A program made the position numbers and the translations under genes. A stretch of 40,488 bases of DNA from positions 1-40,488 of IMG/VR virus record IMGVR_UViG_3300049170_000065. One strand, written 5' to 3'. The notes beneath the pieces are model-generated. The model saw only the letters and a program-made list of their open reading frames with translations, made no database searches and was not told the DNA's origin. The first letter of the stretch is position 1. The number at the start of each line of letters is the position of its first letter. This document shows, one piece after another, positions 10,270 to 37,422 of this stretch. Source of the stretch: a virus (taxonomy: Duplodnaviria > Caudoviricetes).

Positions 10270-10354
10270 TGGTGTACGTACACCACCGTAGCCCAGGTGT
10301 ACGTACACCACAAGCCCTTTCGGGGTTGAACTCCGTACGTACACCGCCTACGGT
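10270..10354. promoter_or_regulatory. Divergent promoters with three palindromic operators (GGTGTACGTACACC)
   Basis: Palindromes at 10270-10285 and 10296-10309, partial at 10335-10345; plus strand TTGAAC-17-TACGGT; minus strand TTGTGG-17-TACGGT. Confidence 0.75.
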
Positions 10355-10360
10355 TAGTGC

Positions 10361-10531
10361 ATGCCTGACGCCCCGAAAACCCAGCACCGGTCCGTCCGCG
10401 TGTCCGACGACGACTGGACCGAACTCGGCAAGGTCGCCGCCGAACAGAAGACCGACCGAGGAACCCTCATCAAGGAATTCATCGCGTGGTACCTGCGCCG
10501 CCCCAAGGCGAAGCTGCCGGCGCGCCCCTGA
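10361..10531 (+). CDS. Ribbon-helix-helix (CopG/Arc-like) regulator, probably leaderless
   Basis: Not in track; MPDAPKTQHRSVRVSDDDWTELGKVAAEQKTDRGTLIKEFIAWYLRRP; ATG 6 nt after the -10 box. Confidence 0.8.
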   Translation: MPDAPKTQHRSVRVSDDDWTELGKVAAEQKTDRGTLIKEFIAWYLRRPKAKLPARP

Positions 10532-26517: not shown

Positions 26518-28491
26518 ATGAGTACCCGCGCCCGCGACTGGCACCTGGCCACCGACAGCGTCCTCGGCAACGCCGTGACCGCCGGGGTCGGCATAGCGGC
26601 CACCACGGCCGCCATGGACGCCGCGCAGATGCACCCGGTCGCAGGCGCGGGCTTCGCTGGGATCGGCGCCCTGACCAGCCTCCTGTCCGGCGGCATGGAC
26701 ACCCCGGAACGCGTCACGGCCAACCTGGCCCGGTGGAGTGCGGCCGGAGCCTGGATGTCGTGGGGGATGCTCGACGGGAAGTGGGGGGCGATCCTGCACT
26801 CCGACCCGTGGAGCATCCCCGCGCTGGGCACCCTCGCCGCCGGCTCGGCAATCGGGGCATCCCTGGGGCCGTGGCTGCGGCGCCGCTCCCAGGCCCCCAA
26901 GGGCCAGCCGGGCGGCCTGGTGCTGGGGTCGGCGGCACGGGAGAACGCCGACTGGCAGCAGCGCATCCTGGAACGCGGCGGAATCGGGTTCCGCGGCGTC
27001 GTGGTGGAGTCGGTTACCCGGTGGGGCAACGGGCTCGGCGAGGACGTGCGGGTGGTGCTGCCGAAGGCGGGCGCCACCGTCGACCAGCTCCGCCACCAGC
27101 TCCCCGGGCTGGCCGCGGACGCGAACCTGCCGCACGGGTGCACCATCGAGACGATCGAGCCGAAGGGTGAGGGGCAGCGGGTGGTGACCCTGCGGGTGCC
27201 GACGCGGATGCTGGACAACCTCAACGAGATGCACCCGCTGTGGGATGAGCAGCGGTCCATCCTCGACGGGGTTCCGATCGGGATCCGCCCGAACGGCGAC
27301 ATCGCCGAGGGGCCGATGCGGGAGGAGTCGTGGCTGGTCGTCGGGAAGAAGGGCGCCGGCAAGACGACGTTGCTGCATGGGATCACGGCGACGGTGGGGA
27401 TGTGCTCCGACGCGCTGGTGTGGCACATCGACCTCAACGGGGGCGGCATGACGCAGCCGTGGGTGGATGTGTGGCTGGACGGGCGCGTGGAGCGGTGTCC
27501 TGTCGACTGGTCGGCGCCCACGATCGACGAGGCGCTGCGGATGACTGAGGTCGCAGTGCGGATCGCACTCCACCGCAAGGGCGCGTACCGCAAGCGGAAG
27601 AAGGCCCACAATACGAACCTGCTGCCGATCGGCGCGGACCTGCCGGAGATCGTCATCATGCTCGACGAGGGCGCCGAGGCGATGGCAGCAGGCGGCAAGG
27701 GCGCCGTGGGTCAGCTCGCCGCGAACCTGGAGAAGATTCAGCGCATCGCCCGAAACGAAGCCGTGAACCTCGTCCTCAGCGTGCTGCGCGGGACCGGGGA
27801 TCTGGTGCCCGCGGCGATGACCACCCAGACCGGGGTGGGCATCTGCATGAAGGTCCGCCAGCAGAAGGAAATCGCCTCGGTTTTCGAAGTGGCCTACGAG
27901 CTGAAGATGAAGCCGGAGCACCTGATCGCGAAGGGCGCCGGGTGGATCGGGGTCGACGGCGACCTGCCGTCCCGCTACCAGACGTGGAACATCCTGCCCG
28001 ACGACATGGAACAGATGGCGCTCCGGATCGCCCGTCAGCGCCCGGACCTGGATGAGGCATCGGCGAAGGTCGCCGGGGAGGACTACGCGACCCGCTACGA
28101 CCGGATGCGGGAGTTGTTCGCGGAGGACGCCGAGATCGTCGAGGCGCCCGCCCGGGTGTCGACCGCGGCGGCAACGTCGTCGTCGGTGACCGCCGACTGG
28201 GATACGGGGTTCACTGCGACCGTCACCGAGGTCCGCCCCGCCCTCCCGCCGGCTGCGGCCGACGACATCCTCGCCGAGGCGTTGCGGGTGATGGATGCGG
28301 CGGGGGTGGACCGGATGGGCCGGGAGCAGCTCGCCGCGGAGCTGACGGGCGGGGACGAGGACGCGCTCCGCCGGGCGATGGTCAACGCCGGTGCGGGTGC
28401 CCCGCATTCGATCCGGTTGGCGGATGGAACCCCGGCGCGGGGTTGGTATCGGCGTGAGGTTGAGGCGGCGACGGCTGTGACGGCGGCGTGA
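26518..28491 (+). CDS. TraB-like FtsK/SpoIIIE conjugative DNA translocase
   Basis: N-terminal TM segments, Walker A GKKGAGKT, WHIDLNGG, Walker B IVIMLDEG, C-terminal winged-helix ending RGWYRR. Confidence 0.82.
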   Translation: MSTRARDWHLATDSVLGNAVTAGVGIAATTAAMDAAQMHPVAGAGFAGIGALTSLLSGGMDTPERVTANLARWSAAGAWMSWGMLDGKWGAILHSDPWSIPALGTLAAGSAIGASLGPWLRRRSQAPKGQPGGLVLGSAARENADWQQRILERGGIGFRGVVVESVTRWGNGLGEDVRVVLPKAGATVDQLRHQLPGLAADANLPHGCTIETIEPKGEGQRVVTLRVPTRMLDNLNEMHPLWDEQRSILDGVPIGIRPNGDIAEGPMREESWLVVGKKGAGKTTLLHGITATVGMCSDALVWHIDLNGGGMTQPWVDVWLDGRVERCPVDWSAPTIDEALRMTEVAVRIALHRKGAYRKRKKAHNTNLLPIGADLPEIVIMLDEGAEAMAAGGKGAVGQLAANLEKIQRIARNEAVNLVLSVLRGTGDLVPAAMTTQTGVGICMKVRQQKEIASVFEVAYELKMKPEHLIAKGAGWIGVDGDLPSRYQTWNILPDDMEQMALRIARQRPDLDEASAKVAGEDYATRYDRMRELFAEDAEIVEAPARVSTAAATSSSVTADWDTGFTATVTEVRPALPPAAADDILAEALRVMDAAGVDRMGREQLAAELTGGDEDALRRAMVNAGAGAPHSIRLADGTPARGWYRREVEAATAVTAA

Positions 28492-28650
28492 CGCCTGGCC
28501 GTCACGGTTGTGACGGTGTCACACGCGTGACACCCGTTGTGACGCTCTGACCTGCTGTAACACCGTGACGGTCGGGTGCGACAACCCCGGTTTCCGGCCC
28601 TCAGGGCCCCTGAACCCCCCACCCCATGCGGCGGTGTCACACCGTCACAC
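28476..28650. repeat. clt-like short repeat cluster (YGTGACRS)
   Basis: GTGAC at 28477, 28488, 28510, 28527, 28539, 28565; GTCAC at 28501, 28518, 28636, 28644. Confidence 0.7.
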
Positions 28651-28721
28651 GACAAAGCGAAGGGCCCGCCCCGAACCGTCAAGCACCGGGCGGGCCCACC
28701 CCATAGAGAGGCACCACCATC

Positions 28722-30107
28722 ATGGCATCCAGCATCCTCGACGCCGCACGGCAGGCCCTGGCGTGGGCCAGCGGCCCTGTGCTCAGCGGTGTCCTCACGC
28801 TCACCATGAGCGTGGTCCTGCTGTCCGGCGCCCTGTGGCTGCTGCGCAGGACCACCCGGAAATGGGCTGACCGACCGCCCCGCGACGGGGCGTTCTCCCG
28901 AGGCGACATCGCCGCGATCGCGTCCGTCCTCGGACTGGCCCTGCTGTTCGTGTCGGTGGCGTTCGCCATGAGCGCGGCCACCCTGTACTCCTCCGCGACC
29001 TGGTTGAAGTCCACCCCGATCCCGCTCAACGGCGGTGACCTGCGGTTCCTGTTCCCGCTGGTCCTCGACGGGCTCATCGTCATGTTCCTGGCGCTGGACC
29101 TGTGGACCGAGTGGAAGCACATCCGCCACCCCTACTACCGGTGGGTGGCTTACGGGTTGTCCCTGCTCACCCTGTACCTGAACGTGCGCCACGGCGGCGG
29201 CGGGTCGCTGATCGGGCATGCCGCCCCGCCCCTCGGGGTCATCGTCATCAGTGAGGGCTTGGCGATCTGGATCCGGTCTATGGCGGGCCTGGTGGAGACG
29301 GGCCGGACACCGGACCGGGTGCCGATGGGCCACTGGATCGCCCGTCCCGCGTCGGCGTTTCGGGTGTGGCGGCTGATGCTCGGCTGGAACATCACCAGCT
29401 ACGGGGACGCGGTGGAGATGGAGCGGCGCCGGTCGATGGCCTATGCGATGCTGCGCGAGCAGTACGGCGACACCTGGCGGGAGGCGACACCGGAGCATGT
29501 CCGGTGGATGCTGAACAACGGACACGACCTGGATGTCGCCTACGACATCACCCGGGCGCTGACGGAGGAGCGCGTCGCCCTGTCCGCCGAGGAGGTGTCC
29601 GGGCGACGCGACACCGTCCGGCCGGCGGTCGCGTCCGGCGACGTGCGACACGACGCCGACGGTGCGACACCGGACCCCGGGGCGGGGGGCGACAGCGACA
29701 CGACGCCCGTGGGCGACACCGATGTCGCGGTGGTGGTGGCGTCGGACACGGCGGTGGATGTCGCCCCCGACAGCGACATGGGCGACGCGACAGCACCCCG
29801 GCCTGCGGATGTCGCCTCCTCGGGCACGCTGGTGTCGCGGGGCGACGTGTCGCCTGTCGTGCCGGAGACGCCTGTCGTGTCGCTGTCGGACATGGCGGAG
29901 CGCGACCGGCAGGTCGTGGAGTGGCTGCGACAGGACCCGGACATGTCCGGTGCGGAGATCGGGCGTCGCATCGGGGCGACAGCGAAGACCGGACAGCGAC
30001 TCAAGAGCAAGCTGGCCCCTGTCGCGCGACAGGCCGCCGAGGGCGACGTCCCGGCGGACGCGACGGCGGACAGCGACAGTGACGCGGCGGACACCGCCGT
30101 CGTGTGA
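28722..30107 (+). CDS. DUF2637 / Spd-like membrane protein with C-terminal HTH
   Basis: FAMS...LFPLVLDGLIV...LYLNV.H...HAAPP.....E; C-terminal PDMSGAEIGRRIGATAKTGQRL. Confidence 0.78.
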   Translation: MASSILDAARQALAWASGPVLSGVLTLTMSVVLLSGALWLLRRTTRKWADRPPRDGAFSRGDIAAIASVLGLALLFVSVAFAMSAATLYSSATWLKSTPIPLNGGDLRFLFPLVLDGLIVMFLALDLWTEWKHIRHPYYRWVAYGLSLLTLYLNVRHGGGGSLIGHAAPPLGVIVISEGLAIWIRSMAGLVETGRTPDRVPMGHWIARPASAFRVWRLMLGWNITSYGDAVEMERRRSMAYAMLREQYGDTWREATPEHVRWMLNNGHDLDVAYDITRALTEERVALSAEEVSGRRDTVRPAVASGDVRHDADGATPDPGAGGDSDTTPVGDTDVAVVVASDTAVDVAPDSDMGDATAPRPADVASSGTLVSRGDVSPVVPETPVVSLSDMAERDRQVVEWLRQDPDMSGAEIGRRIGATAKTGQRLKSKLAPVARQAAEGDVPADATADSDSDAADTAVV

Positions 30108-30359: not shown

Positions 30360-30423
30360 AATTTCCGGTACCGCTTATTGACAGCAGGGGTCGCCACCCC
30401 TAGATTAAGCGGTACCGGAAATT
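30360..30423 (+). promoter_or_regulatory. Near-consensus promoter flanked by a perfect 18 bp inverted repeat
   Basis: AATTTCCGGTACCGCTTA (30360-30377), TTGACA-17-TAGATT, TAAGCGGTACCGGAAATT (30406-30423). Confidence 0.85.
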
Positions 30424-30442
30424 CCTGACCTGGGGAGACCAG

Positions 30443-30892
30443 ATGGCCACCTTCACCTACCGCATCGAAACCAACTACGCCGACACCGGCGACATCCCGC
30501 GCTGGGCCATCGAGAACGACGACGCCCGAGGAACCGAGCACATCACCGACGCGACCGCCGCCGACGTCGCCCGCGAGATCGCCGACAACCGCCGCGCCGA
30601 CCTCGAAGCGAACCAGGAGACCGGCGAGTGGCGGGTCCTGGTGTGGGAGCGCGACACCGAAGGCGACGCCGACCACATCCCCGCCACCGTCCACTTCGCC
30701 CTCACCGAGGACGACTACCGGCGCGGCCGGGGACGCCCCGCGATCGGCCCCGAGGTGAAGACGCGCCTGGCCGACCACGAGGTGGCGCAGGTCGACGCGA
30801 TCGCGGCGTCCACCGGGCTGTCGCGGGCGCAGGTCATCCGCCAGGCCGTGCAGGGCTACCTCGCACAGCAGGTCCGCACCTATCAGCTCTGA
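30443..30892 (+). CDS. Acidic domain fused to C-terminal ribbon-helix-helix
   Basis: RGRGRPAIGPEVKTRLADHEVAQVDAIAASTGLSRAQVIRQAV. Confidence 0.78.
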   Translation: MATFTYRIETNYADTGDIPRWAIENDDARGTEHITDATAADVAREIADNRRADLEANQETGEWRVLVWERDTEGDADHIPATVHFALTEDDYRRGRGRPAIGPEVKTRLADHEVAQVDAIAASTGLSRAQVIRQAVQGYLAQQVRTYQL

Positions 30893-30917
30893 CCATAGGA
30901 AAGCGAAGGAGAACAGC

Positions 30918-31400
30918 ATGCTGACCGACATCACCGTCACCATCGACGACGTCGACCTGGCGGACAAGAGGAACGCGTGGCTCCTCGCCGCCGAGGCGGC
31001 CGGGTACACCATCGAGACAGCGGGGACCGACGACCTGGGGCGCCCGATCGTTGAGCACGATGGCACCACCTACGTCCTGGACAGCTACTACAAGCACCCG
31101 AACCGCTGGGTGGTCATCGCGAGGCAGCCGCCCTACCTGCGGGTGGAGATCATGGCGTCCAACGGCAAGGAAGTCGGGGACGAGAGCGTGCAGACCTGGG
31201 GCATCACCGACGGCCGCGATTCGTTCGCGGATCAGGTCCCCTACTACGAAGACGACACGATCACCGACGCCATCGACCGGTTCCGCGCGAAGGGGGCGCT
31301 GCCGGAGGGCGAGACCGAGGTGATCGACGAGGAGGACACCAGCGACGTCTTCTGGGCCGTGGAGGGGCACGGCCGCTACATCGTGGAGATCACCGGATGA
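30918..31400 (+). CDS. Very acidic hypothetical protein (160 aa)
   Basis: AAGGAG RBS; D/E-rich. Confidence 0.7.
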   Translation: MLTDITVTIDDVDLADKRNAWLLAAEAAGYTIETAGTDDLGRPIVEHDGTTYVLDSYYKHPNRWVVIARQPPYLRVEIMASNGKEVGDESVQTWGITDGRDSFADQVPYYEDDTITDAIDRFRAKGALPEGETEVIDEEDTSDVFWAVEGHGRYIVEITG

Positions 31401-31430
31401 CGCCAGCGGCGAGCGAGTAGGCACCGCCTC

Positions 31431-31463
31431 CGGCCCGGCCCCCACGACGGGGGCCGGGCTTCG
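31431..31463. terminator. Hairpin terminator between convergent genes
   Basis: GCCCGGCCCCC-loop-GGGGGCCGGGC. Confidence 0.7.
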
Positions 31464-31468
31464 TGCTG

Positions 31469-32509
31469 TCAGGCGCCTGCGCGCGCGGGCGGTAGGAGGG
31501 GTTCGTCGTACACGGACTGGTCCGCCGGGTTGGCGAAGGGCGTGTAACCGCCGTTGCGGGGTTTGTTGATGCTGCGCCAGTAGGCGCCCATGTCGGTGTC
31601 GGCGAGGCTGCGAGGCGCCTCTGCGGGGGCGCCGAGGGCGGTTACGAGATCGGGTCGGGCGTCCCCGCCGACCTGGGCGAGGTGGGCGCGGATCACGTCG
31701 GCGTCGCCGGCTTTGATGTCGCCCATGCACAGGGAGCATCCGCCGCCGTGGAGTGTGGTGGCGTGCAGACCGCACTTGGCGGCGGTGGGCCGGGTCCGGC
31801 GGCGGGCGGCGGCGAGGTCGCGTTGGAGGTCGCGGTCGGGGCGTCCGGTGATCCAGGTGGTGATGGAGCGGATGCGGGTCCCTGCTGCGGCGGCTTGGGT
31901 TTCGATGAGGTCGACGACGGCGGCGGCCTCGTCCTCGGTGCAGCCGGTGCGTTCGGTGACGATCTGTTCTGGTGTCTTCCTCTTCCTCGTCGCCTTCTCA
32001 GCGGCGGGCTCCGAAGAGGATGACGGATCCCCTGAGGGATCACCTGACGGATCTACTGATGGATAGGGGTCACCGGAGGTACCTTCGTTGGTACCTCCCA
32101 GGTACCTTTGCCGGTCCCCACGGGAACCATTGGTGTGCCCCACGGGGACCTTTGCCCCCTCCTCGGTGTCCTCTTCGAACCCGAGTCCGGGCACCAGGTT
32201 GTCGTCGTAGACCCGGTCGGGGCGCCGCATCGACTCCAGCCGCTTCACGTTGATGCGGGAGGCGTTGGTCGTCCGGCCGCCGCCCGACTTGCCGCGCTTC
32301 ACGGTCACGAGGAGGCCCACGTCGAGAAGCTGCTTGCGGACCTTCTTCACGCCGCTGACGGACAGCCCGGTCATGTCGGCGATGCGCTCGACGCCGGGCC
32401 AGCAGTACCCGTGCGGGTCGGTGAAGTTGCAGTAGGCCAGCAGGACCGCCTTCTGGGGGGCGGTGAGGTCTTGGGCGTCGAAGACCGTCTGCATGTGCTG
32501 GATGCTCAT
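31469..32509 (-). CDS. Second replication initiator-like protein (N-terminal winged HTH)
   Basis: QKAVLLAYCNFTDPHGYCWPGVERIADMTGLSVSGVKK; internal DNA repeats; PSVDPSGDPS linker. Confidence 0.78.
   Translation of the reverse strand: MSIQHMQTVFDAQDLTAPQKAVLLAYCNFTDPHGYCWPGVERIADMTGLSVSGVKKVRKQLLDVGLLVTVKRGKSGGGRTTNASRINVKRLESMRRPDRVYDDNLVPGLGFEEDTEEGAKVPVGHTNGSRGDRQRYLGGTNEGTSGDPYPSVDPSGDPSGDPSSSSEPAAEKATRKRKTPEQIVTERTGCTEDEAAAVVDLIETQAAAAGTRIRSITTWITGRPDRDLQRDLAAARRRTRPTAAKCGLHATTLHGGGCSLCMGDIKAGDADVIRAHLAQVGGDARPDLVTALGAPAEAPRSLADTDMGAYWRSINKPRNGGYTPFANPADQSVYDEPLLPPARAGA
32021..32156. repeat. Iteron-like repeats within the second initiator
   Basis: Four ~22 bp units starting at 32068, 32090, 32113 and 32135 (core GGNACCTTTG-like), preceded by four 12 bp GANGGAT units. 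Confidence 0.65.
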
Positions 32510-32759
32510 CGCGCGCCTCCCTGGGGGAGGTACGCGAACGTGTCTCGCTGAGTAGCGTCCCGGTTCCGGGTACGGGCTACCATGTGACTAGGATTCATCC
32601 CTAGCCGCCTTCCTGAGTACGCAGGTCGGTGGTCAGAGGCCGTTTGGGTGTTACCAGCACCCGGCGGCCTCGCTTTATGTAGTTGTGCCCCTAGTTTACC
32701 TGCGCCGCAGGCGATCCCGGGCGGAACCGGCCCCGCGGCCGGGCACTAGGGTGTCCGGC

Positions 32760-33293
32760 GTGACCGACTCGAAATGGACCATCCGCGGCGAACGCCTCGT
32801 CGACGAGAACCGCCACATCCGCCTCACCCAGGTCGACATCACCCTCCCCGACGGGATCGAGTTCACCCAGTACGTCGCAACCCTCCCGCCAGCCGCGATG
32901 ACCCTGGTCATGAACGAACAGCGGGAGATCCTGCTGATGCGCCGTCACCGGTTCATCATCGACCGGTGGGTGTGGGAGTTGCCCGGCGGCTACGTCGACC
33001 CCGCCGAGGACATCGCGGTCGCGGCGGCCCGGGAGGTCGAGGAGGAAACCGGGTGGCGACCCCGCAGCATGGAGCACCTGGTGACGTTCCAGCCCGCGAT
33101 CGGCAGCGTGGACCAGCCGCAGATCGTCTACCTCGCCCGCGGCGCCGACCCCACCGGGGCGGCCCCCGACATCAACGAGGCCGAGGAGATCCGGTGGTGG
33201 CCCTTGGAGGAGGCGGTCGCGATGATCGACCGGGGTGACCTCGTCGGCGCCGCTTCCGTGGTGGCCGTGTACCGGGCGCTCACGCTGCCGTAG
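32760..33293 (+). CDS. Nudix hydrolase (ADP-ribose pyrophosphatase-like)
   Basis: WELPGGYVDPAEDIAVAAAREVEEETGW canonical Nudix box; probable leaderless GTG after TAGGGT. Confidence 0.9.
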   Translation: MTDSKWTIRGERLVDENRHIRLTQVDITLPDGIEFTQYVATLPPAAMTLVMNEQREILLMRRHRFIIDRWVWELPGGYVDPAEDIAVAAAREVEEETGWRPRSMEHLVTFQPAIGSVDQPQIVYLARGADPTGAAPDINEAEEIRWWPLEEAVAMIDRGDLVGAASVVAVYRALTLP

Positions 33294-34632
33294 TCAGCTC
33301 CCCGGCGCGCATCTGAAACGCCGCGACCTCCGGCATCCCGCAGTGGGGGCGGAGCCGGTGCTGGACGTCGCGCAGGTAGGACACCGCCCGCCGCGACTCC
33401 AACCCCTCCACCAGCGACAGGGCCTCCTCGCCGACCCGCGCCGCCTCCACCGGGTCCTCGGCCGCGCGGGCGCCGGCGAGCATGAGCAGGTTGAACGCGC
33501 GGCCGCGCACGAAGCTGTTGTCCATGTCGAGGGACCGGTCGGCGTACCGGGCGGTCTGGGCGTCGGAACCCATGGACCGGAAGCAGTGCGCGATCCTCGC
33601 GCTGAGGTAGGCGTCGTCGAAGAACCGCAGCCACTCCGGGGCGTTGGGGTCGTCGCGGTCGAACGCGCGCTCCCCGGCCGCCAGCGCGGTCGAGCACGCG
33701 CGGCCATCCAGCCGGACGGCGTGCCCGTGCGCCTCGATCAGCAGGCACTCCGCCATCAGCGCCGGGTGCCCCGCGCGGCGGGCCGCGGTCTGGGCGGCGC
33801 GCGCCAGGTCGACGGCGTCCCCGCCGCGGCCGACGTAGGTGGCCTGGTGGCCCATGGCGGCAAGCACCTCGGCGCACAGGGCGTCGTCCCCGGCGGTCTG
33901 CGCCATCCGCAGGGACTGGACGAGGTAGCGCTGGGCGATGCCGTGCTCCTCCAGGTCATACGCCATCCACCCGACTTCGCGGGTCAGCTCGGCGGCGGCG
34001 GAGAACAGCGCCTTGCCGATCTCCTCGGTGTAGGTGCCACGCAGCAGGGGGGCGACGTTGGAGTGGAGGTACTGCACGACGGTGGCCCGGACCCTTCCGC
34101 CGCCGAACTCGTTGTCGAGCGCGCGGAACGCCCGCGTCATCTGCCGCAGGGCGGCGATCTCGGGGCGGCCCACACGGGACCGGCCGCGGTGGGCGGGCAC
34201 GTCGCCTCCTGGCAGGGTCAGCCACCGCACCGCGGTGGAGGGGTAGGCGGCGGTGGAGTAGGCCGCGGTGGTGAGCGCGCGTCGGCGTTCGGCGTCGGCC
34301 CGGTAGAGGGCGTCAGCCGCGGCGATGCCGTCCGTCCACGACATCCCGAACTCCAGGGCGACGTCGACACTCCCGCCGGCGAACCCGCAGGCGTCGGGGG
34401 TGATGGTGCGCCCGAGGTGCTCGGAGATGACCTCGGCGATGAGGTGCGGGGCGGGCGGGAGCGGCTGCTCCCCCTCCAGCCACCGCCGGACGCTGTTGTG
34501 GTCGTAGCCGAGGTCGACGCCGCGGTCCGCGCCGCGGGCGACGACCCGGCGCGCCAAGCCCTTGGCGGGGAGGCCGGTCTCGGCGAGGAGGTCGGCGAGC
34601 AATCGGTTCGGGGCCTTCGGCTGTCGCGGCAC
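33280..34632 (-). CDS. XRE-like HTH plus TPR-like regulator (NsdA/sporulation-associated type)
   Basis: PNRLL...YDHNSVRRWLEGEQP; ALDNEFGGGR; VGWMAYD...AQRYLVQSLR; GAGGAG RBS. Confidence 0.8.
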   Translation of the reverse strand: MPRQPKAPNRLLADLLAETGLPAKGLARRVVARGADRGVDLGYDHNSVRRWLEGEQPLPPAPHLIAEVISEHLGRTITPDACGFAGGSVDVALEFGMSWTDGIAAADALYRADAERRRALTTAAYSTAAYPSTAVRWLTLPGGDVPAHRGRSRVGRPEIAALRQMTRAFRALDNEFGGGRVRATVVQYLHSNVAPLLRGTYTEEIGKALFSAAAELTREVGWMAYDLEEHGIAQRYLVQSLRMAQTAGDDALCAEVLAAMGHQATYVGRGGDAVDLARAAQTAARRAGHPALMAECLLIEAHGHAVRLDGRACSTALAAGERAFDRDDPNAPEWLRFFDDAYLSARIAHCFRSMGSDAQTARYADRSLDMDNSFVRGRAFNLLMLAGARAAEDPVEAARVGEEALSLVEGLESRRAVSYLRDVQHRLRPHCGMPEVAAFQMRAGELTTAA

Positions 34633-34817
34633 GGTGGTCTCCTCGATCAGGGTTGTCCGCAGTGTGACACGGGTCATGGCCTGCGCCTACACCCTCGGCG
34701 TTTCTCACTCCCGGTGCGCACGCCCCCTCCCGTCGTGCACGCCTAGGCGGGGGTTGCGCGCCTTCCCCGGTGCTGGTCGCCGGGGGTTGTGTGGGGTGTA
34801 GACCACGGGAGGTGGAG

Positions 34818-35419: not shown

Positions 35420-35534
35420 GGGGGGAGTTGCGGGCGGGCGGGAGGTCTGAGATTGCGCGCCGGTCCCCGGGGGAAGCCGCCCGCCACCAAGCCCGTCGCC
35501 GGGGGGCGGCGGGCTTCTCCGTTTTCGAAGAATT

Positions 35535-35576
35535 ATCTACCCCCCTCTAGACATCGCATCTAGAGGGGGGTAGATT
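35535..35576 (+). promoter_or_regulatory. Promoter embedded in a perfect 17 bp inverted repeat
   Basis: ATCTACCCCCCTCTAGA-7 nt-TCTAGAGGGGGGTAGAT; TAGACA-17-TAGATT. Confidence 0.82.
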
Positions 35577-35607
35577 CATGTCATCGGCAGGCGAGAGGAG
35601 CCCGGAG

Positions 35608-36111
35608 ATGGACACCACCACCGCAGCGCAGCAGGCCAAGGTCACCACCGCCACCATCCGCACCTGGTGCCGGATCGGCGCCGTCGCCGCCACCAAGCAG
35701 GCCGGCCGGTGGACCATCGACGCCGCCTCCCTCGCCCGCCGCATCGCCCTCACCCCCCGCAAGACCCCCAAGAAGATCATCTACAGCGTCGAGACCATGA
35801 CCGCCATCGGCGGCAGCCGCTGGACCAAAGCCGGACACGACCGCGTCTACATCAACAACTGGGCCGACTTCGCCGGGCTGGAGATCACCCGCTACAACAC
35901 CGGCAACATCTCCGGCGCCTCCTGGCAGGGCCAGGGCATCTCCAACTCCCAGGGCGCCAAGCTCGCCGCCTCCATCGACAAGATCTGGTTCGACGCCGCC
36001 ACCGGCAAGATCCACTGCCGCTACGGCTACACCGAATCCCGCGTCGCCACCCGGGACGAGGTCTTCGACGCCACCGTCGCCGGCATCCGCCGCGCCATCG
36101 CCGCCCTCTAG
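35608..36111 (+). CDS. N-terminal excisionase/MerR-type HTH fused to an unknown domain
   Basis: MDTTTAAQQAKVTTATIRTWCRIGAVAATKQAGRWTID; GAGGAG RBS. Confidence 0.8.
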   Translation: MDTTTAAQQAKVTTATIRTWCRIGAVAATKQAGRWTIDAASLARRIALTPRKTPKKIIYSVETMTAIGGSRWTKAGHDRVYINNWADFAGLEITRYNTGNISGASWQGQGISNSQGAKLAASIDKIWFDAATGKIHCRYGYTESRVATRDEVFDATVAGIRRAIAAL

Positions 36112-36122
36112 AAAGCTACGGA

Positions 36123-36671
36123 ATGGACGAGTACTACACCATCCACTGGGACAAGCTCCGCGCCCTGGACGACCGCGCCCAGCTCGACGTCCTCGCCCGC
36201 CTCGGCGCCCACGCCACCGCCGAAGCCAAAGCCGAACGCGCCCGCATCGTCGCCCGCACCGTCCTCAACCTCGGGTCGCAGCGCGCCGCCGCCGCCCACC
36301 TCCACATGAAGACCGCCCGCCTGGGGCAGATCTGGAAGGACCACGAGAAGATGACCCTCACCTACACCGCCGCGATCTGCACCGACTCCAGCACCGTTGC
36401 CGGCGACTACTGCGACGTGTCCGTCGCCGCCGACGAGCTCGTCGGCTACCGGGAGGACGACGACGGCAACGCGACCCCCCAGTACGCCATGGGGTCCACC
36501 GTGGTCCTGGAGGCCATCGAGACCGGCGTCCGGGTGGACGACGACGACAAGCTGGAGAAGGCCGAGAAGGCCGCCGAGAAGATCCTCGAAGACCAGGGGT
36601 GGACGGTGACCGGCCCCTGGAAGGCCTCCGACAACGCCATGTACGCCCAGGTCGAGCGTAACGACAACTAG
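36123..36671 (+). CDS. HTH-like N-terminus plus acidic C-terminal domain
   Basis: GSQRAAAAHLHMKTARLGQI; acidic second half. Confidence 0.7.
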   Translation: MDEYYTIHWDKLRALDDRAQLDVLARLGAHATAEAKAERARIVARTVLNLGSQRAAAAHLHMKTARLGQIWKDHEKMTLTYTAAICTDSSTVAGDYCDVSVAADELVGYREDDDGNATPQYAMGSTVVLEAIETGVRVDDDDKLEKAEKAAEKILEDQGWTVTGPWKASDNAMYAQVERNDN

Positions 36672-36696
36672 TCGAGACCCACAGAAGGAGCCCCCC

Positions 36697-36984
36697 ATGA
36701 TCACGAAGATCACTGCCGACGACATCCGCGACCTGTACGACGCCAACCTGCGGTTCGAGGCGTCCGGTGGCGCCCCGTCCGGCCACAACGACCAGCTCGG
36801 ACCCGTCCTCGCTCTGCGCGACGGGCAGGTGCAGGTGATGCCGGAGCTGACGGCCGTCGCCCAGCGCGCCCGCATCCTCTACACCGGCGACCAGCTCGAC
36901 TCCTGGCTCGACGGCACGGAGCTGCGGAACGGCGAGGCGGAGACGATCGCCGCCGAGGCGACGGCGGATCTCACGAATCCCTGA
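36697..36984 (+). CDS. Small acidic hypothetical protein (95 aa)
   Basis: GAAGGAG RBS. Confidence 0.7.
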   Translation: MITKITADDIRDLYDANLRFEASGGAPSGHNDQLGPVLALRDGQVQVMPELTAVAQRARILYTGDQLDSWLDGTELRNGEAETIAAEATADLTNP

Positions 36985-37009
36985 CACGCGCGCCCCCGCC
37001 GGTTAGAGT
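36981..37009 (+). promoter_or_regulatory. Candidate promoter for the mini-array
   Basis: CTGACA-17-TAGAGT. Confidence 0.55.
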
Positions 37010-37042
37010 GGCACCCACAGACCCGAGACCCGCGCACGCGGG

Positions 37043-37193
37043 AATGCCCCGCCTCGCGCGGGAGTGGACCAGATGCCGGCGGCTGAGCCGTCTACTGCAC
37101 GGTCAATGTCCCGCGCACGCGGGAGTGGACCCGATGCTAGAGACCGCGGCGTCTAAAGCATGGTCAATGTCCCGCGCACGCGGGAAGATCACC
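37043..37193 (+). CRISPR. Type I-E-like mini-array: 3 repeats, 2 spacers, no cas genes in window
   Basis: Repeats 37043-37071 (degenerate), 37104-37132 CAATGTCCCGCGCACGCGGGAGTGGACCC, 37165-37193 (degenerate 3' end); 32 nt spacers; 61 bp period; extra hairpin copy at 37029-37042. Confidence 0.85.
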
Positions 37194-37194
37194 G

Positions 37195-37230
37195 GAAGCC
37201 CCGGCTCCACGGCCGGGGCTTTCCCCTTTT
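37195..37230 (+). terminator. Intrinsic terminator closing the mini-array
   Basis: AAGCCCCGGC-TCCACG-GCCGGGGCTT followed by TCCCCTTTT. Confidence 0.8.
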
Positions 37231-37269
37231 CCCAGGACGTGCGCGCTCCGCCGGATGCACCATGGGGAC

Positions 37270-37422
37270 ATGGACGACGACCTGCCCGACGACGAGTGGT
37301 TCGCCTGGTTCCGGGAGCAGGCGGGAATCCACGAGGAGGACCTGCCGCCGATGACGCTGGCCGCGCGCGAGCAGGCCATGGCCGCGTACACGGACCGCAA
37401 AGACCGCGCCAAGGAGCGCTGA
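37270..37422 (+). CDS. 50 aa acidic protein
   Basis: Not in track; MDDDLPDDEWFAWFREQAGIHEEDLPP...; possibly leaderless. Confidence 0.5.
   Translation: MDDDLPDDEWFAWFREQAGIHEEDLPPMTLAAREQAMAAYTDRKDRAKER

Follow-up and report, generated by a model that had tools for sequence, protein, structure and literature searches.

A type I-E mini-array in a phage cassette as a very probable mimic of a host regulatory CRISPR guide

What use could a phage have for a short CRISPR array that stands without cas genes directly behind a small operon: does it occupy the Cas proteins of the host, or does it guide them to a chosen site? The cassette described here raises this question. It lies in a single virus record of 40,488 nucleotides (nt) and about 71% G+C (the whole of which we call the window), which encodes a serine integrase, an NsdA-like regulator and an amidase lysis gene. 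An earlier note on this DNA had read the cassette as a candidate locus of combined protein and RNA anti-CRISPRs. We asked which parts of that reading hold, and found that the array very probably mimics a regulatory guide of the host.

Organization of the cassette

The cassette is flanked by two terminator-like hairpins and adjoins the lysis genes (Table 1). In keeping with what is expected of the phage RNAs known as Cracrs, the array lies on a mobile element, with integrase and lysis genes, and away from cas genes: tblastn with 13 Cas queries gave no match in the window. The cassette is kept as a unit in contigs from three other studies, which we count as its relatives (X2, X3 and X4; X1 was left out because it may be the source of the window). 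X2 carries it from 35434 to 37225, together with 70 other letters, X3 carries it from 35490 and X4 in pieces, and the match of the relatives to the window ends at 37225. A joint in X3 that would skip 35517–37255 was discarded because its short side has 23 letters only.

The earlier note had placed the promoter inside a perfect palindrome, and the palindrome is there, with arms of 17 bp around a loop of 7 nt; among the perfect inverted repeats listed for the window, one other has 17-bp arms (30360–30423) and the rest have 11 bp. A scan for sigma-70-like promoters found two sites against 0.1 expected. The promoter-like site directly before the array is absent from the earlier account, and its region is kept in the relatives with a 1-nt insertion. 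Because the array has this promoter-like site of its own, co-transcription with the protein genes is not required. The claim that a clear terminator comes only after the array also stands: the hairpin at 37194–37223 folds at −25.9 kcal/mol and the intergenic gaps fold more weakly, at −3.2 between genes 1 and 2, −4.8 between genes 2 and 3, and −14.1, without a U tract, between gene 3 and the array.

Table 1. Features of the cassette, in window coordinates
Feature	Position	Strand	Evidence
Terminator-like hairpin at the end of the preceding operon, forming the left cassette edge	35489..35516	+	Fold and terminator scan
Perfect palindrome of two 17-bp arms and a 7-nt loop; likely operator	35535..35575	.	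Inverted-repeat listing; core motif at 2 of 29 gene 1 loci
Sigma-70-like promoter-like site inside the palindrome	35548..35576	+	−35 at 35548, −10 ends at 35576
Gene 1, 167 aa, basic (pI 10.1): Xis/BldC-like HTH (1–54) and unnamed phage alpha/beta domain	35608..36111	+	Pfam, model, fold search
Gene 2, 182 aa: N-terminal region basic and likely an autorepressor; fused cargo domain acidic (pI 4.05)	36123..36671	+	Homologues
Gene 3, 95 aa, acidic	36697..36984	+	ORF; pI 4.2
Second promoter-like site, directly before the array	36981..37009	+	Consensus promoter scan
Extra repeat-like hairpin without handle	37028..37043	+	Inverted-repeat listing
Repeat 1, degenerate, 8-nt handle kept	37042..37071	+	Repeat comparison
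Spacer 1, 32 nt, matching the regulatory guide of G021 at 20 of the first 21 nt	37072..37103	+	Guide alignment
Repeat 2, 24/29 identical to the G021 type I-E repeat, hairpin and handle kept	37104..37132	+	Comparison with the G021 repeat
Spacer 2, 32 nt, paralogue of spacer 1	37133..37164	+	Alignment
Repeat 3, degenerate, hairpin intact, handle degenerate (18/29)	37165..37193	+	Comparison with the G021 repeat
Terminator-like hairpin and U tract	37194..37230	+	Folding; hairpin 37194–37223

Elsewhere in the window, a second cassette at 30360–31459 is another candidate anti-defence operon: a perfect inverted repeat with 17-bp arms encloses an inner palindrome and is followed by a pair of acidic ORFs (30443–30892, with a C-terminal repressor/RHH-like match, and 30918–31400) and then a hairpin. 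The NsdA-family TPR regulator (33280–34677, minus strand) is convergent with a NUDIX hydrolase (32685–33293, plus strand), and large membrane-associated ORFs at 26518–30107 resemble actinomycete transfer genes as judged by eye. At 10270–10345 a short palindromic motif, likely an operator, occurs three times before a small RHH-like ORF (10361–10531).

The mini-array and a host regulatory guide

Directly after the three genes stands, as the earlier note had described, a CRISPR mini-array. It is cas-less and of type I-E, with two 32-nt spacers. Its repeats consist of 5 nt, a 6-bp stem, a 4-nt loop and an 8-nt handle, which we take to be the type I-E layout, and the repeat of the draft genome G021, that of a putative host, confirmed it. 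Repeat 2 resembles that host repeat (24/29), as a Cracr repeat should. The array RNA folds better than 200 of 200 shuffled versions (z = −4.8). Rfam gave sub-threshold chance matches only; in IMG/VR the exact phage repeat returned no match, and the 16-nt hairpin pattern occurred at 24 loci, none with a mini-array resembling that of the window.

An independent case of a Cracr-type RNA is seen in another phage array. The spacer of a single-spacer prophage array (L035:6945–7020, in G001:C33) matches the CreR-like guide of its own host at 20 of 32 positions and also matches an AAG site before casA in the same genome (G001:C135:15950–16110). By scanning 28 cas3 loci we found both a guide and a target for spacer 1 of the window, in G021, whose locus is of type I-E by Pfam (Cas3, Cse1, Cas7, Cas5 and Cas1). 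Spacer 1 is identical to the regulatory guide beside cas3 at 20 of its first 21 nt, where a Cracr spacer is expected to share at least nine PAM-proximal bases with a host CreA or CreR spacer. The guide sits in an antisense mini-array on contig C80, 283 nt from an AAG-flanked target, and this same site (G021:C80:24202–24220) is the target of spacer 1; Cracrs, too, are marked by incomplete pairing with a PAM-flanked site that precedes cas or creT. Spacer 1 pairs with it at positions 1–5, 7–11, 13–16 and 18–20, the same pattern as that of the host guide. Positions 6 and 12 are flipped out in type I-E. The same two flip-out positions are given for type I-F1 in a preprint (10.1101/2023.03.03.530964).

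The expectation by chance is 1e-5 for the guide match and 1e-4 for the target (168 cas loci, 447 kb), and, with one mismatch allowed, the PAM-plus-seed pattern has a single site in G021 and none in two congeners. The sequencing run X3 also contains a contig with a guide of the G021 type. Upstream of casA, no target of either window spacer was found in 139 loci; an 8-nt seed match before the casA gene in locus L227 was rejected as too short. When loose patterns were applied to 401 and 301 genomes, chance matches predominated; one of the two lists held the G021 guide, with one mismatch.

Taken together, these data indicate that the array is very probably a Cracr-type mimic of a host regulatory guide. 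The earlier comparison with Racrs and solitary repeats has therefore given way, because the array has three repeats and two spacers, one of them with a target, to that of a Cracr-type, promoter-targeting guide; the target of spacer 1 supports, at the level of sequence, the suggestion that the guides may redirect host Cascade.

Spacer 2 is identical to spacer 1 at 22 of 32 positions (counted by hand). It matches the G021 target at positions 1–6, 8 and 10 only, with seed mismatches at 7 and 9, and the G021 guide at positions 1–5, after which the match is broken and falls short of at least nine bases. A search with its exact seed gave no site in three genomes; in a set of 216 it gave 20 sites, spread over 16 genomes and never in the neighbourhood of cas3 or cse1. 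Neither the 139 casA loci, nor the 28 cas3 loci, nor these seed searches yielded a target linked to cas genes. According to the Cracr preprint (10.1101/2024.10.29.618823), Cracr arrays target variants of one type; by analogy, spacer 2 would likely serve a related strain.

A candidate guard peptide in the host CRISPR locus

What does the copied guide control? The host module (G021:C80:23860–24260, locus L325) runs in the order array, target, hydrophobic ORF of 31 aa, 14-bp hairpin, antisense guide, promoter-like motif and cas3, and similar modules occur in L187, L190, L216, L248 and L293. Among 166 cas loci we found 15 distinct guide–target pairs, seven of them short (66–92 nt between guide and target) and eight long (185–248 nt). 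A hydrophobic ORF of 31–52 aa is present in six of the eight long modules, against 5 of 800 shuffles, and in each of the six a hairpin follows it; the other two lack such an ORF at the threshold used, and the peptides, which are unlike one another in sequence, may be incidental. By layout, the guide is aimed at the promoter region of the small gene beside it, as in CreTA-like modules; a consensus scan detected no promoter at the target in L325, where this role is assigned by position and analogy. The motif before cas3, which we take to resemble a mycobacterial DNA-damage promoter, also precedes the phage arrays L036, L155 and L156, but not the window array. In two further loci (L305 and L306), degenerate sense-strand mini-arrays upstream of cas3 have near-identical spacer starts that apparently match a site just upstream.

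Because the target precedes a hydrophobic ORF and a hairpin, because cas3 has a separate promoter-like site and because six of the eight long modules share the ORF, silencing of a peptide guard is the most likely role: by analogy, the host guide would silence a CreTA-like guard peptide, a putative membrane toxin. CreTA guard modules are said to go back to Li and colleagues in 2021. As in CreTA and CrePA, the host module has a degenerate mini-array, and the guide from it is partly complementary to the promoter region of a small neighbouring gene in the cas locus. The candidate here, however, is a hydrophobic peptide of 31–52 aa in type I-E, whereas the toxins of CreTA and CrePA, in the accessible parts of the sources, are codon-sequestering RNAs (I-B and I-F) or the division-blocking CreP (10.1101/2023.03.10.532045; 10.1101/2024.01.05.574328; PMC12737573). 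The literature searched, which does not extend to most subscription papers or to the supplements of the Cracr preprint, yielded no peptide-toxin guard of type I-E.

The main rival to peptide silencing is that the targeted promoter reads through to cas3–casA, so that spacer 1 would silence cas expression in the manner of CracrIE1 and the ORF would be incidental. The target does lie on the same strand, about 450 nt upstream of cas3; seven of the 15 host pairs are short CreR-like modules with no room for an ORF; and the tested type I-E Cracr acts on the casA promoter (10.1101/2024.10.29.618823). However, a 14-bp hairpin and the convergent guide gene stand between target and cas3, and cas3 has a promoter-like motif of its own. 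We regard cas silencing as fairly unlikely.

The cassette proteins

For gene 1, the start in Table 1 agrees with the database protein of 167 aa, an upstream ATG (35578) being without a ribosome site. The earlier note had called two of the genes HTH fusions. This stands for gene 1: Pfam matched its N-terminus to HTH_17 below the cut-off (E = 0.003), and its HTH model (pLDDT 94.8) superposes on Pukovnik Xis (Z 7.8, r.m.s.d. 2.0 over 49 residues). The C-terminal domain matches unnamed viral proteins and has no usable match in Atlas, and gene 1 as such has many homologues (450 proteins). A likeness to AcrIF14 (E = 0.026, likely chance) was rejected because the secondary structures conflict: residues 1–77 of AcrIF14 form a four-helix bundle (PMC8464039), whereas the matched stretch of gene 1 is largely beta strand in the model. 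AcrIF14 was also missing from the matches listed in three fold searches of gene 1, in which the C-terminal domain was folded together with the rest of the protein.

For gene 2, the HTH is putative: the protein matched no family in Pfam, PHROG or NCBIfam, its Atlas leads were below 0.8 and its structure model was poor and unfit for a fold search. Its halves occur apart, the N-terminus in L067 and L069 and the acidic C-terminus as a standalone protein in P0124 (59% identity) or leading an HTH fusion in L003. The core motif of the operator is present exactly in both of the loci with a homologue of the gene 2 N-terminus and in none of the other 27 of 29 gene 1 loci; gene 2, and not gene 1, is therefore the likely autorepressor, whose N-terminus would bind the palindrome, although two cases are few. 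The small acidic gene of the earlier note is gene 3 (95 aa, pI 4.2), among whose six distant relatives is a fusion to a C-terminal domain like that of gene 2.

No known Acr or Aca family was found among the three proteins in Pfam, PHROG or NCBIfam. Three of 29 neighbour proteins of gene 1 homologues match Aca2/YdiL, two of them over the cut-off. The cassette resembles acr–aca operons in its promoter within a palindrome, its small acidic genes, its HTH and the Aca2-like domains near gene 1 homologues, but differs in that its proteins match no Acr or Aca family and its likely repressor is fused to cargo. By this context (the operator, the small acidic shuffled domains and the Aca2-like neighbours in homologous cassettes), the proteins have the look of anti-defence cargo and are candidates for Acrs.

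The earlier note had named conserved linkage of such genes to repeats as a check. Type I-E mini-arrays lie near five of 29 gene 1 homologue loci and are lacking at the other 24, so the linkage is loose; the full-length homologues have arrays at 2 of 12 loci, and the farther flanks hold none in 134,968 nt. The 29 loci leave out duplicates or re-fetched copies (L002, L004, L038, L040–L062, L084) and weak or C-terminal-only matches (L006, L007, L039, L065); L049 gave no match. Other phage type I-E mini-arrays (L036:5717–5875, L063:2324–2440, L070:4344–4460, L033:7260–7325 and L156:2500–2660) have spacers of 14–21 nt, the 14-nt type recurring in L036, L063 and L156, and had no targets in the 139 casA loci.

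Spacers against the phage in G021, a putative host

Three of 78 type I-E spacers from G021 match the window with an AAG PAM, at 31/32, 30/32 and 30/32; the 78 are the sum of two readings (64 and 14) over a subset of contigs of one draft genome. The 31/32 spacer, on the contig that carries the guide, matches 31743–31774 with its sole mismatch at position 6, and the two 30/32 spacers match 30006–30037 and 36232–36263, the latter inside gene 2. A fourth type I-E spacer matches at 26/32 with AAG, and in another array type of G021 one of 13 spacers matches 37377–37412 at 33/36; the reversed window as a control never gave fewer than 8 mismatches. Two of the G021 spacers against the window carry seed mismatches. 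The lysis genes of G021 match those of the window at 78–88%, and together with the spacer matches this argues for encounters between the phage lineage and G021 or a close relative of it. G021 is a near-host at best. Three G021 prophage stretches yielded no mini-array. A separate type I-E array at G021:C147:3940–4900 (L378) has a repeat stem closed by the same T–A pair as the phage repeats; 13 Cas queries gave no match there, and two of its 14 spacers match the window.

How the array may act

We think it probable that host type I-E Cascade takes up the array RNA and is thereby led to repress the promoter of the suspected guard-toxin peptide in the host CRISPR locus. Either the array's own promoter or read-through would supply the RNA, which host Cas6 would then process; with partial pairing, Cascade would bind but would not recruit Cas3. 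The phage guides would crowd out immune crRNAs. Normally such competition, like an Acr protein, would at the same time dislodge the host guide and set the peptide free, but spacer 1 would keep the peptide promoter shut, with the result that immunity is blunted and the trap is not sprung. Spacer 2 would act likewise on a variant promoter in related strains. Meanwhile the N-terminus of gene 2 would act at the palindrome as a repressor of the protein operon, and the cargo domains would be anti-defence proteins, perhaps, though we hold this tentatively, Acrs.

Could the array instead be a sponge only, which like a Racr ties up Cas6, Cas5 and Cas7, its spacer sequence a relic of a captured host mini-array? 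Competition for Cas proteins belongs to the Cracr mechanism (10.1101/2024.10.29.618823), and spacer 2 has no target found. Spacer 1, however, retains the host sequence at positions 1–21 and drifts in its 3′ part. In the relatives it differs at 37095, 37096 and 37100, taking there the 3′ letters of spacer 2, and spacer 2 differs at 37141; among the differences listed (6 of about 12), none falls within positions 1–21 of spacer 1. The kept positions and the exchanged 3′ letters argue for selection on the pairing end, and we consider a pure sponge improbable. That the spacers cut related viruses through host Cascade–Cas3, in competition between phages as reported for many viral mini-arrays (PMC11656645), is very improbable, because IMG/VR holds no match to the first 21 nt of spacer 1 or to the merged seed pattern, 50,697 phage records gave chance-level matches only, there is no PAM-flanked self target and the best match is the host guide.

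Discussion

The reading that we prefer, repression of the guard-peptide promoter by a copied guide, sets the window array beside the Cracrs described in a preprint (10.1101/2024.10.29.618823), which has Actinomycetota entries in its tables S1 and S2. Like them it is phage-borne, cas-less and multi-spacer, with degenerate repeats, one spacer that copies a regulatory guide of the host, nine or more PAM-proximal matches to a promoter region of the CRISPR locus, and protein genes alongside. Unlike them, its spacers have the full length of 32 nt, whereas those of CracrIE have 24 and 21 nt and those of type I-F are shortened and escape AcrIF24; its guide likely aims at a toxin-like peptide gene, whereas the tested type I-E Cracr represses casA; and no known Acr is linked to it. 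With Racrs (Camara-Wilpert et al. 2023, PMC10651486) it shares a viral repeat mimic adjoining a promoter and candidate anti-CRISPR genes, but Racrs are solitary repeats that act by sequestration, whereas the window has three repeats and a targeting spacer.

Because the spacers are full length, the size trick that spares I-F guides from AcrIF24 cannot apply, and an Acr that blocks Cascade would also block the spacer 1 guide. Any cassette protein that is an Acr must therefore work beside full-length guides, which suggests a mechanism other than blocking Cascade DNA binding. That the cassette is a counter-kit to a type I-E membrane-peptide guard, combining new Acrs that spare Cascade DNA binding with a full-length antitoxin mimic, seems to us possible but on the whole doubtful.

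Since Cracrs have already been described, the interest of this locus lies in the candidate guard peptide and in a set that is rarely complete in sequence: the phage guide with its host model, the site that both target, and host spacers directed at this phage. With this set in hand, the mechanism is open to immediate testing. Should the peptide prove toxic, type I-E CRISPR would gain a peptide-toxin guard, together with a phage counter-measure.
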